Origin: an uncultured Armatimonadetes bacterium
Lineage (GTDB): Bacteria; Armatimonadota; Hebobacteria; Hebobacterales; Hebobacteraceae
NCBI GenBank assembly: GCA_963716175.1
Contig: OY970296.1
Span: 3,168,001 to 3,232,000 of the forward strand
Direction: 5' to 3'
Length of the DNA: 64,000 nt
Part shown: piece after piece, positions 971-59,812 of the stretch
Layout: each line of letters begins with the position of its first letter
Numbering within the stretch: the stretch's first letter is position 1
Notes under the pieces: model-generated
What the model saw: the letters and a program-made list of their open reading frames with translations, nothing else
Databases searched by the model: none
What the model was told of the DNA's origin: nothing
Program-made: the position numbers and the translations under genes

Positions 971-1583
971 GGAGATCGGCGTCATCGCGGAGGTCTCTCG
1001 CGGCCCAGCACTGCGACTGGCGGTGCGGGCGCGGCAGGTGCTGGAGGATCTCAAGGTGGGTGACAGCATCGCGGTCAGCGGGCCCTGCCTCACGGTGGAG
1101 CGCATCGCCGGTGACCGCTTCCATGCTTCCCTGCTGCCGGAGACGGCCGAGGCCACCACGCTCAGCGCGGCCCAGATCGGCCGGCGCGTTAACCTGGAGC
1201 GGCCGCTGCGGCTCGGCGACCGCCTGGGCGGCCATCTGGTCACTGGGCATGTGGACGGCGTCGCCGAGGTCACGTCGGCGCAGGATCGCGGGGAGACGCG
1301 ACTGGTCGAGCTGCTCTGCCCGGCCGGGCTGGAGCAGTATCTGGTGGACCGGGGCTCGGTGGCCCTGGATGGAGTGAGCCTGACCGTGCGCGCGCCCGCG
1401 GGGCGGCGCTTCTCGGTGGCCCTGGTCGGGGCCACGCTGGCCGCCACCACCCTGGGTGGGCTGCGGGCCGGGGAGCGCGTGAACATGGAGGCGGACTTAC
1501 TGGCCAAGCATGTGGCGCGGTTGGTGCGGGCAGGGGAGGAGGCCGACGAGAAGCTGGCGGCCTGGCTGACGGAGGCGGAGTAG
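951..1583 (+). CDS. ribE: Riboflavin synthase (alpha chain)
   Basis: [11 protein letters not shown]-terminus, [16 protein letters not shown]; position in rib operon. Confidence 0.96.
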
Positions 1584-1585
1584 CA

Positions 1586-2842
1586 GTGAGCGAAGAGCAA
1601 GCGCATGTCATCATCTCTGTGGAGCAGGCGATCGAGGAGTTCAAGGCCGGTCGCTGCCTGATCCTGGTGGATGACGAGGACCGGGAGAACGAGGGCGACC
1701 TGACCGTAGCCGCGCAGTTCGCCTCGCCCGAGATGATCAACTTCATGGCCCGCGAGGGCCGGGGGTTGATCTGCGTCGCCATGACGCGGGAGCGCCTGCA
1801 CGAGCTGGCCCTCTATCCCATGGTGGCCGAGGAAAACGCGCTGCATGGCACCGCGTTCATGGTGTCGGTTGACGCCAAGCACGGCACCACCACCGGGATC
1901 TCGGCCTATGACCGGGCACGAACGGTGCGGGCGCTGATCGCACCCGAGACCCGGCCGGAGGACCTGGCCCGCCCGGGGCACTTGTTCCCATTGCAGGCCA
2001 AGGAAGGTGGCGTGCTGGCGCGCGCTGGCCAAACCGAGGCCTCCGTGGATCTGGCTCGCCTGGCCGGCCTCTATCCGGCGGCGGTGATCTGCGAGGTGAT
2101 GGCCGAGGACGGCACCATGGCGCGGCTGCCCAGGCTGATGGAGTTCGCCCGCGCCCACCAGGTTCACATCGTCACGGTCGAATCCATCATGAACTACCGT
2201 AGGCAGCGGGAGCGGCTGGTGCGGAGAGCGGCCACCTCGACTGTTCCTACCCGCTACGGCACCTTCACGGTGCACGCCTACGAGAGCTTGGTTGATAACA
2301 AGCCCTATCTCGCGCTGGTCTATGGCGACCTCGGGCCCGGCCCCACCCTGGTGCGGGTACATTCGAGCTGCCTGACCGGCGACGTCTTTCACTCCCATCG
2401 CTGCGACTGCGGCGATCAGCTCGAGCGCGCGCTCCAGATGATCGTGGAGGAGGGCTCGGGGGTGCTGCTGTACATCCAGCAAGAGGGACGCGGCATCGGC
2501 CTGATAAACAAGATAAGGGCTTACGAGCTGCAGGAGCATGGGCACGATACCGTAGAGGCCAATCGCTTGCTCGGATTCGCCCCGGATATTCGCGACTACG
2601 GCATCGGCGCGCAGATTCTGCACGACCTGGGTCTGCGTGAGATTCGCCTCATGACCAACAACCCGGGCAAGGTGGTGGGCCTGGAGGGGATGGGCATGAG
2701 GGTGGTGGAGCGGGTGCCGCTGGAGGTGCCCCCGACCGATGTGAACCGCGGCTACCTGAGGACCAAGCGCGACAAGCTGGGACATCTTCTCTCCGGGGCG
2801 CCGGACGAGGAGCCCAACCAGGGAAAGGACGAAGGGCCATGA
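1586..2842 (+). CDS. ribBA: Bifunctional DHBP synthase / GTP cyclohydrolase II
   Basis: [55 protein letters not shown]. Confidence 0.97.
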
Positions 2843-3336
2843 CCAACACTTACGAGGGCAATCTGCTCGCCAAAGGGCTGCGCTTCGCCATCGTCGCCAG
2901 CCGCTTCAACGACCTGATCACCCGCCGCCTGCTCTCCGGCGCGCTGGATGCGCTCTCTCGCCATGGCGCCGATGAGCAGCAGATTGATGTGGCCTGGGTG
3001 CCAGGCGCGTTCGAACTGCCCCTGGTAGCCCAGCGGCTGGCCCAGTCGGAGAGCTATGATGCCGTGATCTGCCTCGCCGCCATCATCCGCGGCGCCACTC
3101 CTCACTTCGAGTACGTGGCCGCCGAGGCCGCCAAGGGCGTCGCCAAGGTGGGGCTGGACACTGGCGTCCCGACCATCTACGGGATCGTCACTGCCGACAG
3201 CATCGAGCAAGCGGTGGAAAGGGCGGGCACGAAGGCCGGAAACCGGGGTGCGGATGCGGCTCGTTCCGCCATCGAGATGGCCAATCTGATGCGATCTCTG
3301 CCAGCCAAGGGATCGGCGCGAGGCAAGGCGCGGTAG
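2839..3336 (+). CDS. ribH: 6,7-dimethyl-8-ribityllumazine synthase
   Basis: [26 protein letters not shown]; ATGA overlap with ribBA. Confidence 0.97.
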
Positions 3337-3783
3337 GTGCGAGCGGTCGTCCAGCGGGTCAGCTCGGCGCGAGTGGCAGTGGACGAGCAGCCCGTTGCCG
3401 CTATCGGCAAAGGGCTGCTCGTGCTGTTGGGTGTGGCCGCCGGCGACGGCGAGCGGGAGGCGGAATGGCTCGCCGACAAGATCGCCAGCCTGCGCATCTT
3501 CGAGGACCAGGCGGGAAAGATGAACCTGTCCGTGCAGGAGGTTGGCGGCGCGCTCCTCGTGGTGAGCCAGTTCACCCTCCTCGCCGACTGCCGCAAGGGC
3601 CGCCGGCCCAGCTTCACCGCAGCCGCCCCACCGGCCGAGGCCGACCGCCTCTACCAGGTGTTCGTCGCCAGACTCAGATTGGCCGGCCTTGCCGCTGAGA
3701 CCGGCGTCTTCCAGGCCCACATGGCGGTGCATCTGGTCAATGATGGGCCGGTGACGGTGATTCTGGACACGAAGTGTGGTTAG
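3337..3783 (+). CDS. dtd: D-aminoacyl-tRNA deacylase
   Basis: MRAVVQRV, VSQFTL, GRRPSF, NDGPVT. Confidence 0.96.
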
Positions 3784-3988
3784 GGCGAGCATCCCCGCGT
3801 CCGTGGGAGCCCTCAGTTTGGGGCGATGTCCGTTGGGCAGGAGCTTGCTCCTGCCAATCGCAAACCGCGGCGTTGTTGCAGGCGCTCCTCTGCTGTGGTA
3901 AGATGGCCGAGCCGAGCGCAGCGCCTGCCGGTTGAGCGCCTGAGTGGTTGAGGCGCTCTCGCCCTTCCCTGGCAGCGAAGAGGAGCGT

Positions 3989-47863: not shown

Positions 47864-48925
47864 ATGGGACGATCACCAGCACCAAGCATCATCATCACCG
47901 GGGGCGCGGGCTTCCTGGGCTGCCATCTTGCCGCCGGTCTGGCCGGGCGCGCCGGGAGGCTGACCCTGATAGACGTGGCCCCCTTTGTCGCCGACGAATA
48001 CCCGCCCGGGGCCGAGCTGGTGCAGGCCGACGTGCGCGACGCGGCCGCCCTGGGCCAGGTCGTGGCCGCACATCCCTGCGATGTCGTCATACACGCCGCC
48101 GCCGCGCTGCCTCTGTGGACGCGCGAGGACATCTTCGGGGTGAATGTGGAGGGCACGCGGAATGTGCTCGCGGCGGCCCTCGCCTATGGGGTGAAGCGCG
48201 TGGTTTTCATCTCCTCTACTGCGGTCTACGGTGTCCCCAAGAAGCACCCGATTGAGGAGGACGATCCCCTGATCGGCGTCGGGCCCTATGGGGAGAGCAA
48301 GATCCAGGCGGAGCGGCTTTGCGAGGAGTATCGCATCAAGGGCTTGTGCGTGCCGATCATCCGCCCAAAGACCTTCATCGGCACCGGGCGGCTGGGGGTG
48401 TTCGCCATCCTCTACGACTGGGTGAAGAGCGGCGTCCGCATCCCGGTCATTGGTTCGGGGAAGAACCGTTATCAACTGCTGGAGGTGGAGGACCTGGTAG
48501 AGGCGATCTGGCTCGCCTGCGCCGCGCCCGCGGAGAAAGCGAACGTCGCCTTCAACGTCGGGGCGAAGCGGTTCGGCACCGTCCAGGAGGACGTGGGCGC
48601 GCTCTGCCAGTACGCGGGCAGCGGCGCGCGGGTGATGGCGACCCCGGCCTGGCTGGTGAAAGCGCTGCTGCGGTTCTTCGAGTTGGTCAAGCTGTCGCCG
48701 CTCTACAAGTGGGTCTATGGCACCGCCGACAAGGACTCGTTTGTCTCCAGCGAGCGCATCGAGCGGGCGCTGGGCTGGTCGCCGCGTTACAGCAATGCAG
48801 AAGCCCTGATCCGGTCCTATCAGTGGTACCTAGACCACTACACCGAGGTGGAGCAGGCCGTCGGCATCACCCACCGGGTGGCCTGGAAGCAGGGCGTGCT
48901 CAAGCTGTTGAAACGCCTGCTCTGA
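47864..48925 (+). CDS. NAD-dependent epimerase/dehydratase
   Basis: ITGGAGFLG, SSTAVYG, YGESK. Confidence 0.92.
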   Translation: MGRSPAPSIIITGGAGFLGCHLAAGLAGRAGRLTLIDVAPFVADEYPPGAELVQADVRDAAALGQVVAAHPCDVVIHAAAALPLWTREDIFGVNVEGTRNVLAAALAYGVKRVVFISSTAVYGVPKKHPIEEDDPLIGVGPYGESKIQAERLCEEYRIKGLCVPIIRPKTFIGTGRLGVFAILYDWVKSGVRIPVIGSGKNRYQLLEVEDLVEAIWLACAAPAEKANVAFNVGAKRFGTVQEDVGALCQYAGSGARVMATPAWLVKALLRFFELVKLSPLYKWVYGTADKDSFVSSERIERALGWSPRYSNAEALIRSYQWYLDHYTEVEQAVGITHRVAWKQGVLKLLKRLL

Positions 48926-50462
48926 TTGGCAGGGCGTTTTTGCCCCTCAGGTCCTTTCCAGCCCATGCTATCTCGATCTCATACTTCCGGTCCTTCGACG
49001 GGGCGCGCCAGTTGTCGCAGGCCACCGTCACCTTGAAATCAAGCTCTTGGAGAAGCCACCTCTTCTCTGGTAGTGTCATCGTGTCGAGTCGCCCGGCCAG
49101 GCCAGTGACTCTCTCGGCGACGGCGGCGGCGACCCGCTCCCGCAGCTCCGCGTCCTCGATCAAGGGCTCGATCTCTGCCAGGCGTGCCGCCCACTCCTCC
49201 TTGTCCTCCTCGATGTCCTTGCGGTGCGCAGCCAGCTCCGCAGCCGTGATCTCCTCGCCAGCACGCATCCGAATGTAGCGGTCAAGCTTCGCGTCCAGTT
49301 CCTTGAGCCTCCGCCTCAGCCGCTCGCGCTCCTCGCGGTACTCCGGCACCTTCCGGTCCTGCGTCCGCGCCATGTAGACCGCGGCCATCCTCGGGTCCGC
49401 CACCAGCTCCTCGATCAGGCCCCACACCTTCGCGTCGATGGGCGCCGCCGGCACGTAGCGCTCACGACAGGGCCTGCCCACGTTCGCCTTCCTCTGACAG
49501 CAGGAGTAGTAGCCCAACAGGGGCGCCTCCTGCACCATGCGGCCGAACATCTTCGACCCGCACTCCGCGCAGTGAATCACGCCGCCCAGCAGGAAGTTGT
49601 GCAGGAGCTTGCGCCGCGATCTGTGCTTGTGATAGCGGAGAGCCTTCTGCGCTTTCGCCCAGGTGGCCTCGCTCACCGCCGCCCCTGGTGTCAGGTCGGC
49701 CCGGGCGAAGCAGGCCTCCTCAACCTCCGGCGCCGATATGCGCCACTCGCCCTTGTACCGCGGATCCCTCAGCAGTTCTCGCACCACTGAGGGCCTCCAC
49801 GGCCGATGCGTCCTGGCGAACAGCCGGCGCCCGTTCAGCTCGTCACTGATCTCGCGCGTACCCTTGCCCCGGCAGGACAGGTCGAAGATCAGCCGCACCG
49901 TCGCCAGCTCCTCTTCGCAGGCCGCCGGGCGGCCGCACACCCCCCGCCGCTCGCCCCGCTGCCAGCGATACCCGAACGGTTCCTGCCACACCGAGAACTC
50001 GCCCCGTGCCGCCCTGCCCTGCTTGCCGGTCTTGGTGCGCCGGTAGATGTCGTCGGCCTCCCGCTGCGCCTTCCATGAGCCGATCATGGACACCAGCACG
50101 TCAATGTCGTCGCCGAAGTCCACGTCGCCCCGCGGGGTATGCACCCGAACCCCGGCCGCCTTCAGCCGCGCCGCGATCATCGGCCATACAAGCTGATTCC
50201 TGGCGAGCCGGTCCTGGTCATAGACGACGAGGTGCTTGAACCGTCCGGCCTCCGCGTCGTCCAGCAGTCGGCGCAGCGCCGGCCTGTTGCTGAGGTCATC
50301 CTTGCGCGCGGACTTACCGGCGTCCTCGTAGACCTCACTTAGCGGCCAGCCTGCCCGCTTGCAGACCTCGCGCCCCTGCCGGTCTTGCTCCGGCAAGCTC
50401 ACCGCGTCGAGCGTCGCCTGGCCTTGTGAGCTTACTCTGGTGTAAATCGCTGCCTTCGTCAT
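48900..50462 (-). CDS. Large serine recombinase (integrase)
   Basis: AAIYTRVSS catalytic Ser, DRLAR, recombinase domain, CAECG..YYSC zinc ribbon, coiled coil. Confidence 0.95.
   Translation of the reverse strand: MTKAAIYTRVSSQGQATLDAVSLPEQDRQGREVCKRAGWPLSEVYEDAGKSARKDDLSNRPALRRLLDDAEAGRFKHLVVYDQDRLARNQLVWPMIAARLKAAGVRVHTPRGDVDFGDDIDVLVSMIGSWKAQREADDIYRRTKTGKQGRAARGEFSVWQEPFGYRWQRGERRGVCGRPAACEEELATVRLIFDLSCRGKGTREISDELNGRRLFARTHRPWRPSVVRELLRDPRYKGEWRISAPEVEEACFARADLTPGAAVSEATWAKAQKALRYHKHRSRRKLLHNFLLGGVIHCAECGSKMFGRMVQEAPLLGYYSCCQRKANVGRPCRERYVPAAPIDAKVWGLIEELVADPRMAAVYMARTQDRKVPEYREERERLRRRLKELDAKLDRYIRMRAGEEITAAELAAHRKDIEEDKEEWAARLAEIEPLIEDAELRERVAAAVAERVTGLAGRLDTMTLPEKRWLLQELDFKVTVACDNWRAPSKDRKYEIEIAWAGKDLRGKNALPIRAGVSTA
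48934..48951 (+). repeat. Candidate att site (left)
   Basis: GCGTTTTTGCCCCTCAGG matches 57194-57211 at 16/18. Confidence 0.5.
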
Positions 50463-50716
50463 CTATGCCCCTCCTGTCTGGGCCGGCGGCCAGCCGGTGA
50501 GGGGGTGTGCCGGCCAGCCGCGCGGCCCGATGTGATCGCGGTTCACCGGGCAGGGCGGCCTCCCGAGAGTGAGGGTCAAAGGGCCCCTCGGAAAGCGCAA
50601 GCCCCGCCCGGCAGACACCGCGTCAGGTGGTAAGGCCAGACGTAGTGCAACACGGACGGGGCGAATAGGTTCTCTACCAGAGTATGGTGTCTGCACCGTC
50701 TGACCTTACCGCCCCG

Positions 50717-50745
50717 ATTCTAAGCCACCAGGCCCGATCTGTCAA
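50717..50745 (-). promoter_or_regulatory. Near-consensus sigma70 promoter upstream of the integrase leader
   Basis: TTGACA-17 bp-TAGAAT on the minus strand. Confidence 0.7.
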
Positions 50746-51192
50746 GCACGAAAACCGCCCAATCCACCTGCACCTCCACCCCATGCCCAGCACGAACCGC
50801 CCCGCACATCGCCACCTGCGAGGCCATTTCCGGCCGAACGTCCAGAATCGCCCAGGAATCGGCTTTGCCGGGGCCGCACCCACCACCCATGCCAGGCGCT
50901 AATCGCCTGCCCTGCCGCCACCAGTGCAGCCAGGGCAGGCCTTGTGGCGGCCTCGCGCCTCCAAGCAGGGAGGGCCGCCGCCTCCAGACAGACGGCGGCC
51001 CTCAACCCGGCGGCGCCGCCCCCGACGTCGGGGAAAAGTCGAGCCCGCTCCCGCGATCCCACGGGAGAAGGGCGGCGCCACTGATGCCGCCTCGGCGGAT
51101 CAGACCGCGGCTGCCAAAGTCAAGTCAGGTGGGGCCGGCCTGCCACCGGCGCGACCGGCCCCCGGCCTCTGGCTCGCAGGCGCGGCCGAGGC

Positions 51193-52449
51193 CTACACCA
51201 GACACACGAACGGCGAAACCTGGGTCAGACCGTCGGCAAGCGTGATAGGCGCGCGAAGCCACGGCTGCCCATCGGTGCAGGCGAACGCCTTCAACACGCT
51301 GCGGTTCTGAATGAAGTTCGTGCCGTGCGCGTTGGTCATGTCCACGGTCAGGTTCGTGCCGTCTTTGCAGATGTAGTACGACCAGTCCACCAGCAGCACG
51401 TCGCCCGCGGTCCCGAGCACCGGCGCGGCGTCCCATATGTCCACGGGAAAACCGAGCACCGAGCCCCAGGCGTTGGCCGAGGGCTGCCATAGAGGAGTCA
51501 GCCCGCCCGGCAGAGTCGCCATCGCGATCTGCGCGATCACGGTCTGACTGATGATCCACCGCTTCTGCCTACCGCGCGAAGCAGCGACCATGTTCACGAA
51601 GTCGGCGTAGGCCACCGCGCCCGGGCCGGCCCGCGTGACGTTGATCGTCGCCGGATGGCCGATCACGCCCAGCGGTTTCGCCACGCCATCGCCGGCCAAG
51701 TAGGCGTCATCCATCGTCGCCGCGATGGCCTGCGCGAACAACCCGCCCAGGAGCGCGGACACGCCGGGCACGTTCCGGATCAGCTTGTCCGTCAGTTCGG
51801 TGTACCCGGCCAGTTCGTTGGGCTTCAGGGTCAGCTCGCCGAAGGTGGGCTGAGACTCGGGCTTCGCCGCGCCCTCCCCGATCCACGAAACGGTCACGCC
51901 GCCGAACCGCCCGGCCGTGTAGTCGAGCAGCGGCATTTCGATTGCCGCGTCCGGCTGCTGGTCCGACCGGGGCGCATACCGCGCATAGGGCCGGACAAGT
52001 GACTGGTAGGTGATCGCCTCCACCAGCGCGTCGCTCCACTGAGTCGGAACCAAGAAGCCGCCGCTCGCGCCTGTTTGCACTTCCAGCGCGCGGGTGTTCA
52101 GCGCCTGAAGTCGGGAGTCACCGGGGTTCGCGTTCAGCGTCCGGATGAAATCGCCGAAGCTGTCGAAGCCACCGGCCGCCGAGTCCAGCGCCCGCAGCTC
52201 GGAGTCCGGCCGCCGCTCGGCGACGCCGCCGAGGTTGATCGCGGCCCGCTGCGCCGACAGGGAAGCCTGGTCGCGCTGCCCTTCGAGCGCCGTGATGCGA
52301 TCCACCACGGAGGTGCGAATCCGGGCGATCTCGTCCCGGAACTGCCGCACCACATCCTCGTCGCCGCCGGGCAGTGCCAGTCGCGCCCCGCAATCGCAAA
52401 AGAGTCGCGTACCGTCATACTGCTTGCCGCACTTCGGACAGACCTGCAT
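51193..52449 (-). CDS. HK97-family phage major capsid protein with N-terminal zinc ribbon
   Basis: GGFLVP, WIGEGAAKPESQPTF, GDGVAKPLGVI; N-terminal CPKC..CDC. Confidence 0.9.
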   Translation of the reverse strand: MQVCPKCGKQYDGTRLFCDCGARLALPGGDEDVVRQFRDEIARIRTSVVDRITALEGQRDQASLSAQRAAINLGGVAERRPDSELRALDSAAGGFDSFGDFIRTLNANPGDSRLQALNTRALEVQTGASGGFLVPTQWSDALVEAITYQSLVRPYARYAPRSDQQPDAAIEMPLLDYTAGRFGGVTVSWIGEGAAKPESQPTFGELTLKPNELAGYTELTDKLIRNVPGVSALLGGLFAQAIAATMDDAYLAGDGVAKPLGVIGHPATINVTRAGPGAVAYADFVNMVAASRGRQKRWIISQTVIAQIAMATLPGGLTPLWQPSANAWGSVLGFPVDIWDAAPVLGTAGDVLLVDWSYYICKDGTNLTVDMTNAHGTNFIQNRSVLKAFACTDGQPWLRAPITLADGLTQVSPFVCLV

Positions 52450-52709
52450 GGTCTGCTCACTTTCCGACCTGCCCGGCCACCGCGGCCGGGTCAGGTCTCA
52501 CGCTTAGTGTGCATCCGCCGAGAGGTGGCTATGCCGGCCTCCCTGCGCTCGACTGCCGGCCCGGAAACAAGCGTGGTGGCCGCCGTCGCGAACGGCGAAT
52601 CCGTCGCCTGCCCCCGGGTGGCTCTGCCGGCCCGGTTGGGAGGTGGTGTCCTGCCGCGGCCGCGACAGTCCCGGCCTCCGTCCCCGGGTGGCGTATGCAC
52701 CAACGCCCC

Positions 52710-53345
52710 TCATCGCTGATACCGTTCATAGGGGTCCCACTCTTCGACGCTGCCATAGGTCTTCGAGCCCGGCGGCATGACGGGAGGATCCCCGGGCCGC
52801 CGCAGCACGATCACCTCAACCTCTTCCGCCGCCGGCGCCTCCTCAGAGACCGCCACCACCGCGTCAACCGCCGCCGTCATGCCCGCAGGCTGCGCACCCC
52901 GCCCCGGTGCCCGCGCCCTGGCGATGGCCTCGGCTTCCCCCTCATCGGGCTCGGCCCGGGCCACCACGATGGGCGGTGCCGGTTTCGGACGCAACTGCTT
53001 GGCCGCCGACGCCAGCGCCGACCAAGCATCGCTCCGCGGAAAGTGCCGCAGAAGCCCCTGCACGGCGACTTTCCAGCCAGAGGCGTCCTGGCAGAGGATG
53101 GCCCTCAAGGTCCTCACCACGTCGTCACGCAGAGGCTCCAGCGCACCTTCTGCCGGCAAGGCCGCGACCGCCGCCAGTAACGGCTCCGGCCAGTTCTCTG
53201 TAGTGGTGTCCGCCAGTGCCGACTTGGCTCTTTCGTAGCCGAGAAAGTCGAACACCAGGTCCGCTCCGTCTAAGAGTGACGGCAGCGCCCACCGCCGCAC
53301 CAGCCGCCCCGCCCTTTCCAGTAGGCTCAGCATAGCCTTACTCAT
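52710..53345 (-). CDS. Hypothetical protein of the element
   Basis: Start overlaps the upstream gene end; ~211 aa, Ala/Pro-rich C-terminus. Confidence 0.55.
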   Translation of the reverse strand: MSKAMLSLLERAGRLVRRWALPSLLDGADLVFDFLGYERAKSALADTTTENWPEPLLAAVAALPAEGALEPLRDDVVRTLRAILCQDASGWKVAVQGLLRHFPRSDAWSALASAAKQLRPKPAPPIVVARAEPDEGEAEAIARARAPGRGAQPAGMTAAVDAVVAVSEEAPAAEEVEVIVLRRPGDPPVMPPGSKTYGSVEEWDPYERYQR

Positions 53346-53775
53346 GCGCCGCCTCCAGCGCCGCCACCAGCCTTTCCAGTTCGACCAGCCGCTCCTCGAC
53401 CTCAACACCCCGCCTCACGGCCAAGGCCATCTGCGCGATGCTGGCGCAATCCCGCGCCCTGCCGGATGCCAGCTCGCCCCGAAGGACGGCCCGGGCCAGC
53501 GACTCAAAGAACCCGCGCACGGCCTCACCCGAAGAGAAGTCTATCTGCCCCACCAGCAGCTTCCGCCGTTCCGCCACCACGCGGCCCCCCTGGGCCTGAG
53601 CCTGCCGGCGCTTGTCCGCCAGCCGCTCTGAGTGCGCGAAGCACATGCCGCTGCCATCTGCCAGGGGTATGCCCCGACACCGCTTCCCTGCCCGTGTAGT
53701 GGCTGAGCAGAACTGCCCAGCCGTCTCTGACCCGATCACGCCGCGCTCATTGTCCCTGTGAGTCTCAGAGGCCAC
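53338..53775 (-). CDS. Phage-type protein with C-x9-C..CxxH motif (possibly TerS-like)
   Basis: CSATTRAGKRCRGIPLADGSGMCFAH, then helical C-terminus; AGGAGG RBS. Confidence 0.65.
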   Translation of the reverse strand: MASETHRDNERGVIGSETAGQFCSATTRAGKRCRGIPLADGSGMCFAHSERLADKRRQAQAQGGRVVAERRKLLVGQIDFSSGEAVRGFFESLARAVLRGELASGRARDCASIAQMALAVRRGVEVEERLVELERLVAALEAAHE

Positions 53776-53930
53776 TGTGGCCCTCCTGGTGCGTCCTGCG
53801 TGTTTTCACCTGACACCCATGTAAAGCGTGCTTGAACAGCCGCCCCCTACATGGGCCGCCGCCCAGCCAGGCCGCGGCCTGGCGCCACCCAAAGCAAGCA
53901 AGTACACGGTTCACTGAATCTCACTCTGCC

Positions 53931-54713
53931 TCACCACTTCACCCTGCCGCCCTTGTCCCCGAACTCTTCGGCCGCGGCTGGCGCTCCACGAGGTGGCCAG
54001 TATGGTTGCTTCTTATCGTCATCGCTCATCCGTGCGTCGCGGAAGTCCCTGCGCGGTGGCGGCCAGTTGCCCTTGATGGATGCCACCAGCACTCGGATCG
54101 GGTCATCGGCCGTCCGCTGTGGGAGCAGTTCGATCTGCGCCTCGATGACCTCGATGCCGAAGTCCTGCACCAGCTTTGCGGCCTGGCTTTTCCCCACGCC
54201 TTGACTTACCAACCGGGAAACAGCAGCAGCGCGCTCTGCTGCTCCCCCCTCTGAAATGTCTTTCTCTGAAGAGGGGGGGGTGTCGTTTTTGTTGTCACTT
54301 TGCCCGTGAGTGACAACACCCACGTTGTCACTAGTGACAACACCAGTGTTGTCAGTTGGCTGGTCCGAAGTGACAACACCCACGTTGTCAGTTGGCCGCC
54401 ATGCCGGGTTCAGATCGTGGCTCGAAGTAGCGCCTCGCCGGCGCATGATTTTGAGGTGTCCCCGCTGCTCGAGGTGGCGGATGGCCCGGGACACGATCCG
54501 CTTGCCGACCTGCACCTCCAGGCCGAGTTTCTGGGCGATCGTCCGGGTTCGAATCTTGGCGGGGATGAGGGCGCCACTCGCCTTGTCCTTCCGGCTGTGT
54601 CGGGCCAGCACGCAGAACACCCGGAGATCCCAGGCCGTCAGTAGCAGGTCGGAGATCACGCGCTCGGGCACTTGCGCAAACCTCGCTCGTGGGGTATCAT
54701 CTGGTCGCCGCAC
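53931..54713 (-). CDS. Putative replication initiator (winged HTH with internal iterons)
   Basis: FAQVP..DLRVFCVLAR..VSRAIRHLEQRGHL; repeated DNVGVVT linker. Confidence 0.7.
   Translation of the reverse strand: MRRPDDTPRARFAQVPERVISDLLLTAWDLRVFCVLARHSRKDKASGALIPAKIRTRTIAQKLGLEVQVGKRIVSRAIRHLEQRGHLKIMRRRGATSSHDLNPAWRPTDNVGVVTSDQPTDNTGVVTSDNVGVVTHGQSDNKNDTPPSSEKDISEGGAAERAAAVSRLVSQGVGKSQAAKLVQDFGIEVIEAQIELLPQRTADDPIRVLVASIKGNWPPPRRDFRDARMSDDDKKQPYWPPRGAPAAAEEFGDKGGRVKW
54291..54390. repeat. Palindromic iteron-like repeats (putative origin)
   Basis: TGACAAC-N6-GTTGTCA at 54311, 54335 and 54371, plus a half site at 54291. Confidence 0.75.
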
Positions 54714-54917
54714 TCTCCAGCTCCTGGGTGCGGCATGAACCGGCCTGGCAGGGCCGGTTTTCTTCTGGCCATCGCAGCGCGCCGCCCGGGCCTCGGGCTC
54801 GGCGGAGACGCCACGCGCGCACCTCGCTGAGATGCTTCCCGTGGGCAAACGGATCTACGTGGCGCATCCGGGGCGAGTGGGGCAAGACGCAGCCGGCGTG
54901 TGTATGGTAGCGGCCGG

Positions 54918-56183
54918 TCATGGCGCCCCCTCCTGCACCGCCACCTGCCTGGCCTGCTCCGCCTCGCGGATGCGCGCCTCGGCCGTCGCCATCGCCACCG
55001 GGTCGATCTCTATCCCCACGAAGTCCCGGCCCAGCTCGACCGCGGCCACGCCGGTTGTGCCGCCGCCGAGGAAGGGATCGCACACCAGGTCCCCAGGCGA
55101 AGTCAGCCGGCCGATGTAGTACCGGGCACAGCCGATGCTCTGCTGCCAGGGGTGCGCGTCCTTCTGGACGTGCTCGCTCACATAGACGTTCTCGAACCAC
55201 GCCCGTGGCCCGGTGAAGTCGTGCCGCACGAAGAAGAGAAGCGGCTTGCTTCTCGTCCAGATACACATGGTGAAGAGGCGGCCCTCGGCGCCCGGCAGGA
55301 AGATGCTGCCCGAGCACCAGAAACGGAGCTGCTGCCGTAGGCCGTCGAACGCCGCTGGCAGGCAGATGTTCCCCGAGTATGCGATCAGCATACCGTCGGA
55401 CTTGAGGACGCGCGCCGCGAACTCGCTCAGTGCCGGCCAGAGGTGTTCGGCCTGCTTGAGATAGGGCGGATCGGTAAAGAGCAAGTCAACCGAGGCGTCG
55501 GCGATCTCCGCGCCTCGCTCGCGCATATCGCCCAGCAGTAGCGTCGCCGTGCCGATGGTGGCGTCGGCCTCGGCCGCGCCGTTCGCAGAGTAGCCGTCTC
55601 TGCGGGCCAGTTTCTCCAGGCCGCGGGCGTCGAGGACCCGATGGGGCAGATCCCCACCGAAGCTGGCCAGGGCCTTCAGCGCGCGGTCGCGCTCCAGGCG
55701 GTTCTTGGCGATCACTGCTGGCCGCGACGGACGGTACAGCTTACCGTCCCGGCCAAGCACCTCCCCAGGTGTATGATTCTGAACACCTGAAAGGTCGGCG
55801 GCCACGGTGCCCAGGCTCATGCCCACCAGCTCGGCGATGCGGCGAAGGCTCAGGCCGCGGCCGCGCAGTTCGCCGCAGAGTGCGCCCCTCTGCTCCTTGC
55901 TCAACTGGCGGCGAGCGAGGTTCAGCGTCAGCACGTGCTCAAGCTTCTGGCCTTCGGTCAGGCCAGGGCGAACGATCGTGGGGTAGTCCGTGATGCCGAG
56001 TTCGGCGCAGATGGCAAGCCGGGTGTGGCCGTCGAGTACCTGCCCTTTCTCGTCGAGTTCTATCGGGACAAGCACGCCCTCCCAGGCGATGGAAGCCTTG
56101 AGCGCGGCGCGCCGGTCGGTGGCCAAGGGTAGAAACAAATCGGCGAACCTACCGGGCCGCACTTCGGGCTTGGGCGCGCTCAT
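54918..56183 (-). CDS. ParB-like domain + HTH + N6/N4 DNA methyltransferase fusion
   Basis: VLDGHTRL ParB motif; TDPPY motif IV before DPFLGGGTT motif I (beta order). Confidence 0.9.
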   Translation of the reverse strand: MSAPKPEVRPGRFADLFLPLATDRRAALKASIAWEGVLVPIELDEKGQVLDGHTRLAICAELGITDYPTIVRPGLTEGQKLEHVLTLNLARRQLSKEQRGALCGELRGRGLSLRRIAELVGMSLGTVAADLSGVQNHTPGEVLGRDGKLYRPSRPAVIAKNRLERDRALKALASFGGDLPHRVLDARGLEKLARRDGYSANGAAEADATIGTATLLLGDMRERGAEIADASVDLLFTDPPYLKQAEHLWPALSEFAARVLKSDGMLIAYSGNICLPAAFDGLRQQLRFWCSGSIFLPGAEGRLFTMCIWTRSKPLLFFVRHDFTGPRAWFENVYVSEHVQKDAHPWQQSIGCARYYIGRLTSPGDLVCDPFLGGGTTGVAAVELGRDFVGIEIDPVAMATAEARIREAEQARQVAVQEGAP

Positions 56184-56410
56184 CGCGCCCGCCCCTCCGC
56201 CAGCGCGGCGATCGCCTGCTCACAGCGCCGCACCGCTTCTTCCGGCGTCATCCCCACGGGCAAGCGCTGGCGGAACGTGAAGGTCGGGCCCTTGCGCTCG
56301 GCCTTCTGCTTTCGTTGGTCTTCGGTTTTCGCGCCGATCATCCGCACGTGTCTCCCCAAACAGAACGCGAGCCCGCTCGGTTCTCCGAGCTGTGGGCTCG
56401 CGTCGGCCAC
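56180..56410 (-). CDS. Small hypothetical protein
   Basis: Stop overlaps the MTase start (ATGA); start uncertain. Confidence 0.4.
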   Translation of the reverse strand: MADASPQLGEPSGLAFCLGRHVRMIGAKTEDQRKQKAERKGPTFTFRQRLPVGMTPEEAVRRCEQAIAALAEGRAR

Positions 56411-56573
56411 CGCGAGGCGGTCTGGGTTATGTCAACGGGCTTGCGCCCGGTCTTCGCTGGGCAGGCCAGCCGCTAGGACAGCCGACCTGCCCATGAGACT
56501 GCACTCGTTCCAACTGCGAACTCGCCGCGCCCTGTGGGCGCACGTCAAGCCGCGCACCGCGCGGCAGGGGGTG

Positions 56574-57113
56574 TCACCCTTCAGCTAGCAACCAGCGCCA
56601 TCGCGCGCACACGGTCTCCGCGATTTTCTGATCGCCCTCGCCGAGTCTCACGCCCGCGCGCTCGGCCAGGAACTCGGGCGTCAACGCCGCCGCCACTCGC
56701 GCCTGATGTTCAAGCAGCAGACGATGACGCTCAGCCCTGCCGGCAAGCTCGGCGGCGACTTCGTCGGCATCTTCCTGCCAGGCCCACGTTACGCCGGGGT
56801 AACCCTCCGCGAGGAACTCTGCCGCGGCCCGATCCAGCCGCGCCGTCATCTGTGCCGCCATGAGCTTCATGGCCTCGGCCTCGGCGCGGTCGCGCTCCTC
56901 CTCGGCCACGAGTGCGGTGACTTCCTCGCCCAGGACGAGGCGCAGGGTGCGCGCGTACGTCATGAGGCGGCGGGTCCCGGTGTCGCGAACAAGGTCCGAC
57001 AGTATGGCAGGGTGAACCCTCGCCCGCCGCGCTGCCTCGTTCAAGCTGAATCCGGCCCGTTCTATGAGCTGGCCCAGCCGCTTACCCCGGGAAGGGGTTT
57101 CAGGTGTTCCCAT
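56574..57113 (-). CDS. XRE/Cro-like HTH protein
   Basis: LGQLIERAGFSLNEAARRARVHPAILSDLV helix-turn-helix. Confidence 0.65.
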   Translation of the reverse strand: MGTPETPSRGKRLGQLIERAGFSLNEAARRARVHPAILSDLVRDTGTRRLMTYARTLRLVLGEEVTALVAEEERDRAEAEAMKLMAAQMTARLDRAAAEFLAEGYPGVTWAWQEDADEVAAELAGRAERHRLLLEHQARVAAALTPEFLAERAGVRLGEGDQKIAETVCARWRWLLAEG

Positions 57114-57162
57114 GTTTCTCTCCGTTTCATCACAGCCGACTGTATGCCCCATAACACGGCTC

Positions 57163-57191
57163 AGTATACCACATCGGGGCTGGCCTGTCTA
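57163..57191 (-). promoter_or_regulatory. Sigma70 promoter driving the element's operon
   Basis: TAGACA-17 bp-TATACT with TG extension on the minus strand. Confidence 0.6.
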
Positions 57192-57193
57192 TA

Positions 57194-57211
57194 GCGATTT
57201 TGCCCCTCCGG
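57194..57211 (+). repeat. Candidate att site (right)
   Basis: GCGATTTTGCCCCTCCGG; shares the 11-bp core TTTTGCCCCTC with 48934-48951. Confidence 0.5.
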
Positions 57212-57544
57212 CCAGGTTTTTTTCGCGCCCCCGCCCGGGCCAAAGAGAAGGACCCCGCACCCGAGGGCGCGAGGTCCGGTCCGCCCGATCAGGTTGTCAG
57301 CCGCTCACGCCGCCCAGCGCCCGACCGCCCTCAGGCCCACAAGGTCGCACCGCTTCTCACAGAGCCGCAGGACGCTCCTGGTGGACTCGCAATCTGAGCG
57401 GGGGCTTCTTCAAGCGGGTCTTGTAGGGCGGGCATGTCTGTGCATGCCCGCCGGCCTCTCTCTCCTCCGCCTCGCCGGGGAGGTGGGCGAGCGACGACAG
57501 CGAACACAGTTGGCCGTAGTCCACTACATCGCAAGGAGACTCCA

Positions 57545-59812
57545 ATGGCCGATACTTCGCCCTCAGTCTGGCCCATCCCCCAAGAGATGAAGCTGCGCGA
57601 GGACGCGCTCGCGCTCAGCCGCGCCGTGCTCGTCGTTCCTCCGCAGGCCAGGGAGGCTGACCTGGGGCCGACGCATCTCTTCGCCGATATGGTGGCCGAT
57701 GACTTCGGCCTGGTGGTGCCAGTGGTGCGCGGCGAGGCGCCGGCCGGCAAGCTGCCCATTCGCATTCGCGTCGCCGGCCAGCGCGGCGGAGGGCGGACGC
57801 CGCGGCATCTCCCCGGCGCCGAGGGTTATCTGCTGCGCATCACCGCGGATGGCGCGGAGGCCGTAGGCCGGGACCGGCGCGGCGCGCAGTACGCAGCGGC
57901 CACCATGCTCCAGCTCGCCCAGCGGCAGGGTGGGGAAGCGGTGCTGCGCGGGGCCGAGATTCGGGATTGGCCCTACAAGCCGGTGCGCATGGTGCACCTC
58001 TATCTGCCCGGCACCGAGCATCTGGGTTACGCCCGGCGCTATCTGCGCGACTTCCTCCTGCGCTACAAGTATAACGGTCTCTTCCTGGAGCTGGGCGGGG
58101 GGGTGAGGCTGCGCAACCGGCCCGAGATCGCCCAGGGATGGCGGCGCTTCGTCGAGGAGCTGCGCGCTATCGGCGACACCGGGCCCATCTATGGCGAGCA
58201 CTGCCCGCTGGGGCCTGGTGGGCGATTTGCCGCCTCCGTGCACACCCATCTCGCGGACGGGCGCTACCTGGAGCCCGGCGACCTGCGCCTGATCAGCGAC
58301 TGGGCGCGAGCATACGACCTCGACCTGGTCCCGGAGATCCAGTCCCTTGCCCACGCCTACTACCTGGCTTGCACCTATCCCGAGATCGCGGAACTGAAAG
58401 AGGCCGATTTCCCAGATACCTACTGCCCCTGCAACCCGAAATCGTATGAGATCCTGTTCGATGTCATGGCCGCCTACATCGAGCTGACGCAGTGCCGCAG
58501 CCTGCACATCGGGCACGATGAGTGGCGCGCCGCCGGCCTCTGCCCGGAATGCCGTCAGAAGGACACCGGCGTGCTGTTCGGCGAGGACGTGGTCAAGATC
58601 GCCTCCTGGCTGGCTGAGCGAGAGATCGGCGTCTGGATGTGGGGCGACCACTTGGTGCCCAAGCACAATGCCCGCGCGCGCAGCCATCGCAGTGCCAAGG
58701 TGTGGTACGACCATCCCGACACCCAGGCTGCGGCCGAGATCGTGCGCCGCGGGGCCCCGCAGATCACCATGCTGAACTGGTCCTGGTACCTGGGCGCAGA
58801 GGACGGCGACCGCGTGCTCGCCGACCTGGGGTTCAAGCAGATCTACGGGAATTTCCATGCCCGCGGTTTCCCCGACTGGCCCGGCCGCAGCGCGCATCCC
58901 AGCGTGCTCGGGGCGGAAGTCTCCTCCTGGTGTGCCTGGGACGATTTCGAGCTGGGCATGATCCACTACCCGGACGCCGTTCACTCTGCCAACGCCATGT
59001 GGTCTCAGCATTGGCCCGCGGCCGGCGAAGTGGAGAGGATCGTGGCCCAGCAACTGCCCAAGCTGCGGGACCGGATGCGGCGCGGCTGGGAGAAGCCGCG
59101 ACTGCTGTCAGAGGCCACCCCGCGAAAGCGCAAGCAGATCATCTCCATTCGCCAGGCCTGCAACGCTCTGTCGAGAACGGAAGACTGGGACCTGAGCGGC
59201 CTTCGCTTCGGCCCCCAGGAGTCGGACGGCCTCGCCTATGAGCTGCTCGATCCGGCCGCGAATCAGGGGTGCGTGGGCGTAGTGGTGGAGCGGCTGCAGA
59301 AGCCCGAGACTCAGTATCCGCAGGCCTCAAAGGCGATTCGCATTGGCGGCAAGTACGCGAGCCTGATCTTCTGGCAGGTGGCAACCGCTGCCGGCGGGAG
59401 ACCCGCCCACGCTGGAGATGGCACCAATCACCCTCGCGAGGCAGCCGAGCTGCTGGGCTGGTATGAGATCAGATTCGCCGATGGCCTGACCCGGCAGGCC
59501 GAGGTCCGCTATCACGAGAACGTGGGCGCCTGGGATGAGGGCCACGTGTTGCTGTACTACGCCAGGGAAGTGGAGTCCGGCCGCCTGCCCGAGGGCAAGC
59601 CGCTGGTGATCTGGGGCCTGGAGTGGACGAACCCGCGGCCGGAGGTCGAGATCGAGTCAGTAACCCTGCACGGCGCCAGGACCATGCCTGAGCGTGGGGA
59701 GGGGCACTTCTCCGGGGCGCGGCCCATGCTGCTGGGGATCACCGCAATCGAGGCCCTCAAGTGGGAGGACTACCGCCCGGGGAAGGAGGGGAAGCTGCCG
59801 GGGGTGCCCTAG
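57545..59812 (+). CDS. GH20-like beta-N-acetylhexosaminidase
   Basis: AEGYLLRI, IRDWP, PEIQSLAH, HIGHDE catalytic motif, MWGD. Confidence 0.85.
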   Translation: MADTSPSVWPIPQEMKLREDALALSRAVLVVPPQAREADLGPTHLFADMVADDFGLVVPVVRGEAPAGKLPIRIRVAGQRGGGRTPRHLPGAEGYLLRITADGAEAVGRDRRGAQYAAATMLQLAQRQGGEAVLRGAEIRDWPYKPVRMVHLYLPGTEHLGYARRYLRDFLLRYKYNGLFLELGGGVRLRNRPEIAQGWRRFVEELRAIGDTGPIYGEHCPLGPGGRFAASVHTHLADGRYLEPGDLRLISDWARAYDLDLVPEIQSLAHAYYLACTYPEIAELKEADFPDTYCPCNPKSYEILFDVMAAYIELTQCRSLHIGHDEWRAAGLCPECRQKDTGVLFGEDVVKIASWLAEREIGVWMWGDHLVPKHNARARSHRSAKVWYDHPDTQAAAEIVRRGAPQITMLNWSWYLGAEDGDRVLADLGFKQIYGNFHARGFPDWPGRSAHPSVLGAEVSSWCAWDDFELGMIHYPDAVHSANAMWSQHWPAAGEVERIVAQQLPKLRDRMRRGWEKPRLLSEATPRKRKQIISIRQACNALSRTEDWDLSGLRFGPQESDGLAYELLDPAANQGCVGVVVERLQKPETQYPQASKAIRIGGKYASLIFWQVATAAGGRPAHAGDGTNHPREAAELLGWYEIRFADGLTRQAEVRYHENVGAWDEGHVLLYYAREVESGRLPEGKPLVIWGLEWTNPRPEVEIESVTLHGARTMPERGEGHFSGARPMLLGITAIEALKWEDYRPGKEGKLPGVP

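Follow-up and report, generated by a model that had tools for sequence, protein, structure and literature searches.

The window analyzed here, a stretch of 64,000 nucleotides from the genome of an uncultured Armatimonadetes bacterium (contig OY970296.1, positions 3,168,001 to 3,232,000), contains an integrative element of 8,501 bp that is integrated in the last codons of an epimerase gene. The borders and gene content of this region support its description as a discrete, intact and compact element in which a major capsid gene is the only recognizable virion gene. The explanation that we favor, with confidence about evenly balanced for and against it, is that the element belongs to a lineage of helper-dependent phage satellites that would supply only a capsid protein. 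Positions given below without a contig or locus name are those of the window.

Borders and integration site of the element

The limits of the element were set by its att junctions, at 48908-48909 and 57409-57410, as follows.

48910-57410: element, 8,501 bp
48885-48935: attL, with the host half up to the core TT (48908-48909) and then the P' arm of the element (48910-48928)
57385-57435: attR, with the P arm of the element (57390-57408), the core TT (57409-57410) and then the displaced end of the epimerase gene

The limits of 48934-57211 proposed in the initial annotation are not these junctions and coincide with an 11-nucleotide (nt) direct repeat. On the left side, homology to relatives extends to 48912-48925, and on the right side the alignments with loci L176 and L177 begin at the TT; in the junction alignment, the host-side halves of the att sites agree with the uninterrupted epimerase gene of relatives. 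At attL, the replacement last codons and stop codon (48923-48925) of the epimerase gene come from element DNA and encode a C terminus similar to that of the original epimerase. The original last codons and stop codon are found at 57409-57428 (stop at 57426-57428), followed by the original intergenic DNA. By blastn, window positions 47972-48912 and 57566-59000 matched positions 557-1497 and 1610-3050 of L176, and the matched blocks are separated by 113 bp in L176 versus 8,654 bp in the window. An empty site is present in relative G005, in which the epimerase gene (C204:464-1507) lies directly before a GH20 gene (1577-3850), the neighbor found to the right of the element in the window. The two genes are about 0.8 kb apart in relative G011; in relative G003 the epimerase gene was present and GH20 was not found. 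Among the 15 genomes of the family (own genome included), homologs at E <= 1e-30 occurred in 4 for the epimerase and in 8 for the GH20 protein.

TT occurs at both junctions, and the element ends form an imperfect palindrome around this core: a symmetry scan of the element-end arms (57390-57408 and 48910-48928) found 17 of 25 positions complementary around the TT, and the inner arms were complementary at 15 of 19 positions when compared by eye. Attachment sites of the phiC31/Bxb1 type are approximately 40 to 50 bp long and have imperfect dyad symmetry, a non-palindromic central dinucleotide and no long terminal direct repeat. The structure of the junctions is that expected of a serine-integrase attP. 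A serine integrase recombined this palindromic attP with an attB located in the last codons of a NAD-dependent epimerase gene, with TT as the core.

Two further observations were made at this locus. The long GH20 open reading frame (ORF) opens at 57434, and an ATG at 57546 is preceded by AGGAG, resembling a ribosome-binding site, and aligns with the start of the gene in relatives. Because the original gene end and intergenic DNA reappear from 57409, GH20 probably starts at this ATG, and 57434-57546 is probably old intergenic region. In G011 (G011:C1; L177:1420-2200), this intergenic position is occupied by a different insert, about 0.8 kb long and seemingly with two small minus-strand ORFs; DNA may insert repeatedly between the epimerase and GH20 genes.

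Gene content and the capsid protein

The element encodes eight proteins, listed here in the order of their coordinates (GC3, third-position GC content; HTH, helix-turn-helix).

48900-50462, minus strand: large serine integrase, 520 amino acids (aa), with Resolvase, Recombinase and Zn_ribbon_recom domains (phrog_95 integrase, 1e-86)
51193-52449, minus strand: HK97-fold major capsid protein, 418 aa (PF05065; TIGR01554; phrog_10, 3e-38)
52710-53408, minus strand: protein without a family match, 232 aa from a GTG or 211 aa from an ATG at 53345
53338-53775, minus strand: DUF5763-type zinc-finger protein, 145 aa, with a C-x9-C-x11-C-x2-H knuckle and three helices
53931-54848, minus strand: initiator-like winged-helix protein, 305 aa (HTH_36, E of 0.001; phrog_270 "replication initiation protein," 4e-4)
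54918-56183, minus strand: ParB-like N-terminal domain and N6/N4 DNA methyltransferase, 421 aa (PF01555, 4.8e-16)
56180-56410, minus strand: 76-aa protein whose gene overlaps the methylase start (GC3, 0.82)
56574-57152, minus strand: 192-aa protein with a weak N-terminal HTH, first gene of the run (HTH_3, E of 0.0055, below the cut-off; GC3, 0.75)

All eight ORFs are intact and have high third-position GC, in a genome of approximately 67% GC. The integrase matched PF00239 (4.3e-25), PF07508 (2.2e-13) and PF13408 (1.1e-7), all above the cut-offs, and it therefore has the three domains that define a large serine recombinase within one protein of about 450 to 600 aa. The capsid protein matched PF05065 at 2.9e-33 (115.9 bits against a cut-off of 24.2) over profile positions 1 to 277 of 280, that is, across the full capsid body of an HK97 major capsid protein, and it matched TIGR01554, the phage capsid equivalog, at 160.2 bits against a cut-off of 27.5. 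When the eight proteins were compared with Pfam, PHROGs and NCBIfam, no portal, terminase, protease, connector, tail or lysis family was found, and blastx of the five noncoding gaps against 14,852 ORFs of related loci gave no gene debris at E <= 0.01. The initial annotation had described a single minus-strand gene run that includes a ParB-methyltransferase, a Cys/His protein, an HK97 capsid and a large serine recombinase, and had recognized neither a portal, large terminase, protease or tail gene nor pseudogene debris. These points were borne out by the coding signal of all 8 genes, by the Pfam and PHROGs matches of the methyltransferase, by the DUF5763-type zinc finger of the Cys/His protein, and by the searches just described. 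With its structural (other than capsid), packaging and lysis genes absent, at 8.5 kb and with clean borders, the element is not a complete temperate tailed phage.

The capsid protein consists of an N-terminal CxxC...CxCG zinc ribbon, a coiled-coil delta-like region (residues ~30 to 120) and the capsid body. The zinc ribbon (residues 1 to 25; 52375-52449) is kept in 12 of 19 aligned homologs, and several N-terminal columns are invariant in alignment A2; this constrained region fits, and does not prove, processing by a protease supplied in trans. The closest solved structure was that of the RcGTA capsid (6tba/6tb9, 5.5e-23). Zinc-ribbon HK97 capsids fall into two separate clades, one of which has full phage head modules with an S78 protease; in the phage contigs L098 and L028 the corresponding capsid genes are at L098:8098-9420 and L028:9693-11027. 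We know of no description of an N-terminal zinc-ribbon extension on HK97 capsid proteins. Capsid relatives of 66 to 68% identity occur in metagenomes, and named homologs come from Phycisphaerae and Sedimentisphaerales metagenome-assembled genomes (MAGs), a Treponema MAG and Paenalkalicoccus. Few species-representative genomes have the capsid: 4 of 401 genomes of a phylum sample (E <= 1e-20, own genome counted) and 2 of the 31 genomes of the class (E <= 1e-30).

Phage genes elsewhere in the genome

The genome is a single 4.56-Mb contig in which the capsid of the window is the sole PF05065 (Phage_capsid) match, and the whole genome gave no match to PF04860, PF04586 or PF03354 (Phage_portal, Peptidase_S78 and TerL_ATPase, respectively). 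A tblastn search of the genome with 1,608 ORFs of at least 200 aa from 160 capsid-relative loci (E <= 1e-8) returned the capsid, scattered methylase and ClpP/S49-like matches, which are probably host genes, and one large terminase (TerL). The latter, at 2,229,699-2,231,195 (phrog_2, 7e-38), shares 69% identity with the L098 TerL over 458 aa. Contigs L098 and L028 both carry TerL, portal, S78 protease and a capsid with the same N-terminal zinc ribbon. Because the TerL of the genome resembles that of L098 so closely, phages of the L098/L028 type have probably met this host lineage, and they are therefore obvious helper candidates.

This terminase gene ends a second serine-recombinase block (G000:C1:2218871-2231195; L179:1871-14195), which encodes a 573-aa serine recombinase, a DnaG-zinc-finger protein, ParB, two N6/N4 methylases, a DUF5681 protein and TerL; after TerL, nothing recognizable as portal or capsid was found. 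Three more serine-recombinase paralogs, 24 to 26% identical to the integrase of the element, are encoded on G000:C1 near 827589, 1481332 and 2042018.

Two proteins upstream of the capsid

The zinc-finger protein encoded at 53338-53775 had 301 representative relatives at E <= 0.001, and 24 of 70 aligned members of its family matched PF19067 (DUF5763). In the two Atlas clusters nearest to it, 64% and 50% of the members with a known taxon are viral; it has no PHROGs name. Its structural model (pLDDT of 88) gave nothing at E <= 0.001 in a Foldseek search of the PDB and BFVD (BFVD best, 5.8e-3), and only generic helical hairpins with Z of 7.5 or less in the VIA wide search. A role as a small terminase was considered and rejected, as hhalign against the DUF5681 protein of the second block returned a probability of 1.5%.

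The protein encoded at 52710-53408 begins with a variable helical part and ends in a strongly conserved peptide of about 35 aa that includes PGDPPVMPPGS (alignment A7), the two being joined by a low-confidence linker. It had no family match in Pfam, PHROGs or NCBIfam and no enzyme domain; a profile search of the PDB gave nothing at E < 0.85, the Atlas gave no usable match, and the structural model (pLDDT of 52) was unusable. Encoded just before the capsid, with a helical N-terminal part and an invariant C-terminal peptide, it may by analogy be scaffold-like; phage scaffolds and the CpmB protein of Staphylococcus aureus pathogenicity islands (SaPIs) have the same build. Only four homologs were found besides the protein itself. 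Matches to its profile occurred only upstream of capsids that group with that of the window (L094, 5e-34; L095, 3e-22; L003, 1e-4), and a homolog of the zinc-finger protein, split over two frames, lies upstream in L003, which belongs to genome G006. Neither profile matched in the other capsid loci (160 loci, 14,852 ORFs).

The arrangement of this protein and the capsid also bears on a very improbable explanation, namely, that the element carries an encapsulin-like compartment, a portal-less shell into which the upstream protein would be loaded via its conserved C-terminal peptide. The gene order, with a putative cargo followed by a shell, would agree with such a compartment, as would a protein whose body varies while its C-terminal peptide does not, but the putative cargo has no enzyme domain. 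In family 1 encapsulins, the shell matches the encapsulin Pfam and the cargo bears a short C-terminal targeting peptide; the conserved peptide here is about 35 aa long. Likewise, the genome lacks an HK97-type portal and an S78 protease, but the shell itself matches TIGR01554 and PF05065, with no encapsulin family at a Pfam E of <= 0.01, and keeps the coiled-coil delta-like N-terminal region that phage capsid precursors typically have. Moreover, the unit lies within an element that has an integrase and phage-type genes.

A capsid clade with its own gene module

The surroundings of related capsid genes were read in 160 loci, 80 from IMG/VR (the best 80 of 549 matches) and 80 from metagenomes (the best 80 of 140). 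A usable capsid ORF was present in 158 of these, and in 138 of the 158 an ORF of at least 100 aa ends just before the capsid gene; the other 20 loci were mostly too close to a contig end for an upstream ORF. The 138 upstream ORFs comprised 71 with Peptidase_S78, 20 with Phage_portal, 24 with NfeD, 17 with S49, 12 with ClpP and 9 with SDH-type matches, the protease-family counts overlapping one another. BLAST clustering placed 130 of the 138 in four large clusters, and L094 and L095 clustered separately, with each other. Capsid genes of this kind thus usually reside in a canonical head module.

A FastTree phylogeny of 100 capsid rows was built, with SH-like (not bootstrap) supports, leaving out loci of less than 36% identity (except L025, L028, L063, L096 and L098), rows with an aligned length below 250 residues and 9 duplicates. 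The window capsid grouped with P0001, L094, P0003, P0005 and P0006 (support, 100), then with L003 (84) and then with L095 and P0007 (90), giving a nine-row clade with a support of 90 that stands apart from the other rows; L063 joined it weakly, via a very long branch. P0007 comes from a Phycisphaerae MAG. The context was readable for four of the nine rows (window, L094, L095 and L003), and in all four a protein of the 52710-53408 type is encoded before the capsid. The module of the clade has the order zinc-finger protein, 52710-53408-type protein and capsid, the zinc finger being seen in the window and in L003. In G006, which belongs to another genus, the integrase is 46% and the capsid 44% identical to those of the element; this integrase gene is on a short contig separate from that of the capsid and adjoins a host gene other than the epimerase. 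Integrase relatives in metagenomes had identities of 74, 50, 47 and 43%. Because the capsid has its own clade, the module is specific to that clade, the integrase has co-diverged in a second genus and no debris was found, the comparisons favor a lineage of compact elements, with movement since its divergence, over a random remnant. The initial annotation had asked whether capsid homologs lie only within full prophages; 130 of 138 loci do fall in canonical-module clusters, and the nine-row clade, in the four rows with readable context, falls outside this pattern with a module of its own.

The same data were weighed for a decayed prophage, in which a temperate phage of about 40 kb would have lost its terminase, portal, protease, connector, tail and lysis genes by deletions. 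Between the old att sites, only early genes, the capsid and the integrase would remain, and the capsid would have no present function. We consider this unlikely. The cultured relatives of the capsid are in Caulobacter phages with genomes of about 42 kb (37% identity), canonical head modules are seen in 130 of 138 related loci, and the second block provides another partial phage-like region in this genome. However, decay would require that the DNA flanking the capsid gene was deleted to its left and right without leaving debris, with every ORF kept intact, with a normal coding signal, and with the attP symmetry preserved. Nor would it account for two capsid-upstream genes that are absent from the 160 other loci and yet kept with the capsid at 43 to 67% identity in three sequences, for a capsid clade apart from the phage capsids, or for an integrase and a capsid that have co-diverged in a second genus in another insertion context. 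Signs of mobility, which would count against decay, were not obtained from four public DNA runs of one study: 9 to 15% of sampled words were found, and the runs yielded low-depth contigs of 151 to 328 nt identical to the window, none of which spans a junction, so that they carry no information on excision.

Remaining genes and noncoding features

The matches of the 305-aa protein to HTH_36 and phrog_270 are both weaker than the usual cut-offs, and the protein had no match in phage collections, plasmid collections or the PDB. Three palindromic iterons (repeats D1, I23 and I24) lie within its ORF, at 54309-54396, and are a probable origin, a layout also found in phage lambda, whose O gene contains iterons inside the initiator gene. 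At the protein level, the iterons appear as central repeats of a VVTSDN-like peptide, between the winged-helix and C-terminal parts. Thus, of the iteron-containing Rep of the initial annotation, the three iterons inside the gene stand and the Rep assignment is weak. Similarly, the gene annotated as an HTH protein is real and its HTH assignment is weak; the 192-aa product is a possible regulator. The 76-aa protein had no family match in Pfam, PHROGs or NCBIfam. The ParB-methylase also matched phrog_67 (3e-31) and phrog_620 ParB (4e-10).

Five features were noted in the noncoding parts.

50717-50745, minus strand: sigma-70-like promoter, TTGACA-17-TAGAAT, upstream of int, with 11 of 12 consensus matches
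50767-50940, minus strand: conserved noncoding block of ~170 nt between capsid and int, upstream of the int promoter
51128-51170, minus strand: G+C-rich hairpin directly 3' of the capsid stop codon, kept in 4 of 4 clade members with DNA
57163-57191, minus strand: promoter-like site, TAGACA-17-TATACT with a TG extension, before the first gene, with 10 of 12 consensus matches
57250-57277, minus strand: terminator-like hairpin, with a 12-pair stem containing 9 G-C pairs, which would follow the extended int ORF in the circle

Two promoter-like sites were found in the region versus 0.6 expected. The members compared for the G+C-rich hairpin were the window, L094, L095 and L003. The ~170-nt block, part of a 730-bp gap between capsid and int, is strongly conserved with metagenome contig L094, and it is better conserved with L094 than is the capsid gene beside it (L094 capsid, 67% identical at the protein level). 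The block lacks a coding signal, its RNA fold is not unusually stable (z-score, -1.34), and no Rfam match reached the gathering score of a family, three at E of 0.2 to 1 being far below; it may be a regulatory or packaging site.

The stop codon of the integrase gene lies 6 nt past the crossover, within host DNA. When the ORF was read by script across the joined ends of the element, it encoded 552 aa versus 520 aa in the integrated form; in the circular form, the stop of the extended ORF would be at 57305. Because the int ORF crosses the recombination site, the integration state would change the tail of the integrase.

A possible satellite life cycle and points against it

If the element is a satellite, its cycle would begin when a helper phage infects the cell, a candidate being a siphovirus of the L098/L028 type, whose full head module includes a zinc-ribbon capsid. 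The element would then excise and replicate from its iterons. The run from the weak-HTH gene to the capsid follows one promoter-like site, and a second, strong promoter-like site lies before int. The capsid and the two clade-specific upstream proteins might assemble on the portal of the helper, the 52710-53408 protein with its conserved C-terminal peptide acting in a scaffold-like manner. The prohead protease of the helper would mature the shell, its terminase would fill it and its tail would complete the particle, and the outcome would be particles for the element or spoiled helper assembly. More tentatively, and with clearly less confidence than we place in a satellite lineage as such, we propose that minimal capsid-only satellites of tailed phages exist in uncultured Armatimonadota and perhaps Planctomycetota, that the capsid and its two partners redirect the portal, protease, terminase and tail of a helper for an 8.5-kb genome, and that this cell also keeps a mirror-image, terminase-only element.

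Several results weigh against a satellite. Neither a small terminase nor a pac or cos site nor an anti-helper function could be identified in the element, and a helper prophage is absent from the genome. We infer, rather than observe, the excision, circular form, replication and encapsidation of the element, and both the Rep and the HTH assignment are weak. None of the 80 best capsid matches in IMG/VR (of 549) falls within the clade, and IMG/VR gave no confirmed match for the integrase clade or for the 52710-53408 protein. For the other clade members, the sequence around the capsid comes from contigs of 1.9 to 3.3 kb, too short to show synteny of the whole element. The initial annotation had proposed a search of related genomes for the same gene order; this order was found for the capsid-proximal module in L003, but no homolog of Rep or of the 192-aa HTH protein was found in G006 (84% complete, 490 contigs), which gave only generic methylase matches.

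The same absence of clade members from the best 80 IMG/VR matches would be expected of an integrative, plasmid-like element that spreads by other means and whose capsid and two partners co-assemble with or titrate phage head proteins, so that particles are aborted and the host is protected. Such an element would need its own integration and probable replication functions and nothing for packaging, as found here, and mixed assembly is conceivable, since the N-terminal region of the capsid is common to the full phages L098 and L028. We nevertheless regard this explanation as rather improbable. PADLOC returned only methylase models for the element and no other known defense family, and there are no conjugation or transfer genes, so long-term spread between genera would be unexplained. 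Satellites also interfere with phages, so this explanation overlaps that of a helper-dependent satellite. The probability not assigned to the explanations discussed here is left to something else.

Comparison with known satellites

Satellites of tailed phages include some that lack a capsid gene and remodel the shell of the helper (P4, SaPI and the PLEs) and others that have a nearly complete head module (the capsid-forming phage-inducible chromosomal islands, or cf-PICIs; MulchRoom/MiniFlayer; and the EPIPs), the satellites MulchRoom/MiniFlayer having full head modules. Classical PICIs and SaPIs have a tyrosine integrase, a divergent repressor and activator, a primase-replicase with an origin, and capsid-remodeling, terS or rpp genes. 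The element resembles them in having an initiator-like protein with iterons; it differs in its serine integrase and in having all genes in one direction, and no primase, terS or cpm-like family was found in it.

The cf-PICIs encode capsid, protease, portal, head-tail connectors, both terminase subunits and HNH and take only tails from the helper (PMC10690885), in agreement with the statement of the initial annotation that they carry a full head module. Like them, the element would be an integrated satellite with its own capsid rather than one that remodels that of a helper; with a capsid alone and a serine integrase, it is not a cf-PICI (PMC10690885). The EPIPs of Mycolicibacterium aichiense have a serine integrase, capsid, HTH protein, small terminase (TerS), head-to-tail adaptor, stopper, scaffold and tape measure and rely on a helper for everything else (PMC12822802). 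By gene content, the likeness lies in a small satellite with a serine integrase, a capsid and an HTH protein, whereas the element lacks matches to TerS, adaptor, stopper, scaffold and tape measure and is found in another host phylum (PMC12822802). Having only the integrase and the major capsid protein, it is not an EPIP.

The PLEs of Vibrio cholerae are satellites with a large serine recombinase (PMC6002521), and the element shares with them this recombinase family, an initiator (here an initiator-like protein with a probable origin) and, if it is a satellite, a helper that would not be resident; for the PLEs the helper is a lytic phage (PMC6002521, PMC7145576). The comparison rests on the shared recombinase family; the PLEs, as described, have no capsid gene and remodel the coat protein of the helper (PMC10945586). 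In the VEIMEs, a serine recombinase is found in module 3, and the description of these elements includes no major capsid gene (PMC9618062). The SRCE satellites of haloarchaeal spindle-shaped viruses have a replication module and an incomplete morphogenetic module, possibly a capsid alone (bioRxiv 10.1101/2025.02.15.638363). The element is similar in combining a replication module with capsid-only morphogenesis, but the SRCEs are archaeal and plasmid-borne and have an unrelated capsid fold that is not of the tailed-phage HK97 lineage (10.1101/2025.02.15.638363).

The initial annotation had proposed a possibly undescribed satellite class that supplies only a capsid protein. The intact element, its lineage and the capsid as sole recognizable virion gene hold up; the argument for novelty was overstated, because satellites with a serine integrase (PLEs, PMC6002521; VEIMEs, PMC9618062) and with a serine integrase and a capsid (EPIPs, PMC12822802) are already in print. 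What sets the element apart is a capsid gene alone, without portal, protease, terminase or connector genes. A tailed-phage satellite with a capsid as its sole structural gene was not found in the literature searched, and supplementary sets (VEIME, SatelliteFinder) may list such elements.

Significance

Three parts of the system are directly testable: the att site pair of the serine integrase, the three-gene capsid module and the zinc-ribbon extension on an HK97 capsid. If the element is what we propose, an element that supplies only the shell protein would represent a third satellite strategy, and it would offer a simple system in which to ask what a capsid requires of the portal, protease and terminase of another phage. 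Satellites would also become known from phyla in which hardly any phage has been cultured, and, if this cell also keeps a terminase-only element, the functions of head assembly would be split among separate small hijackers.

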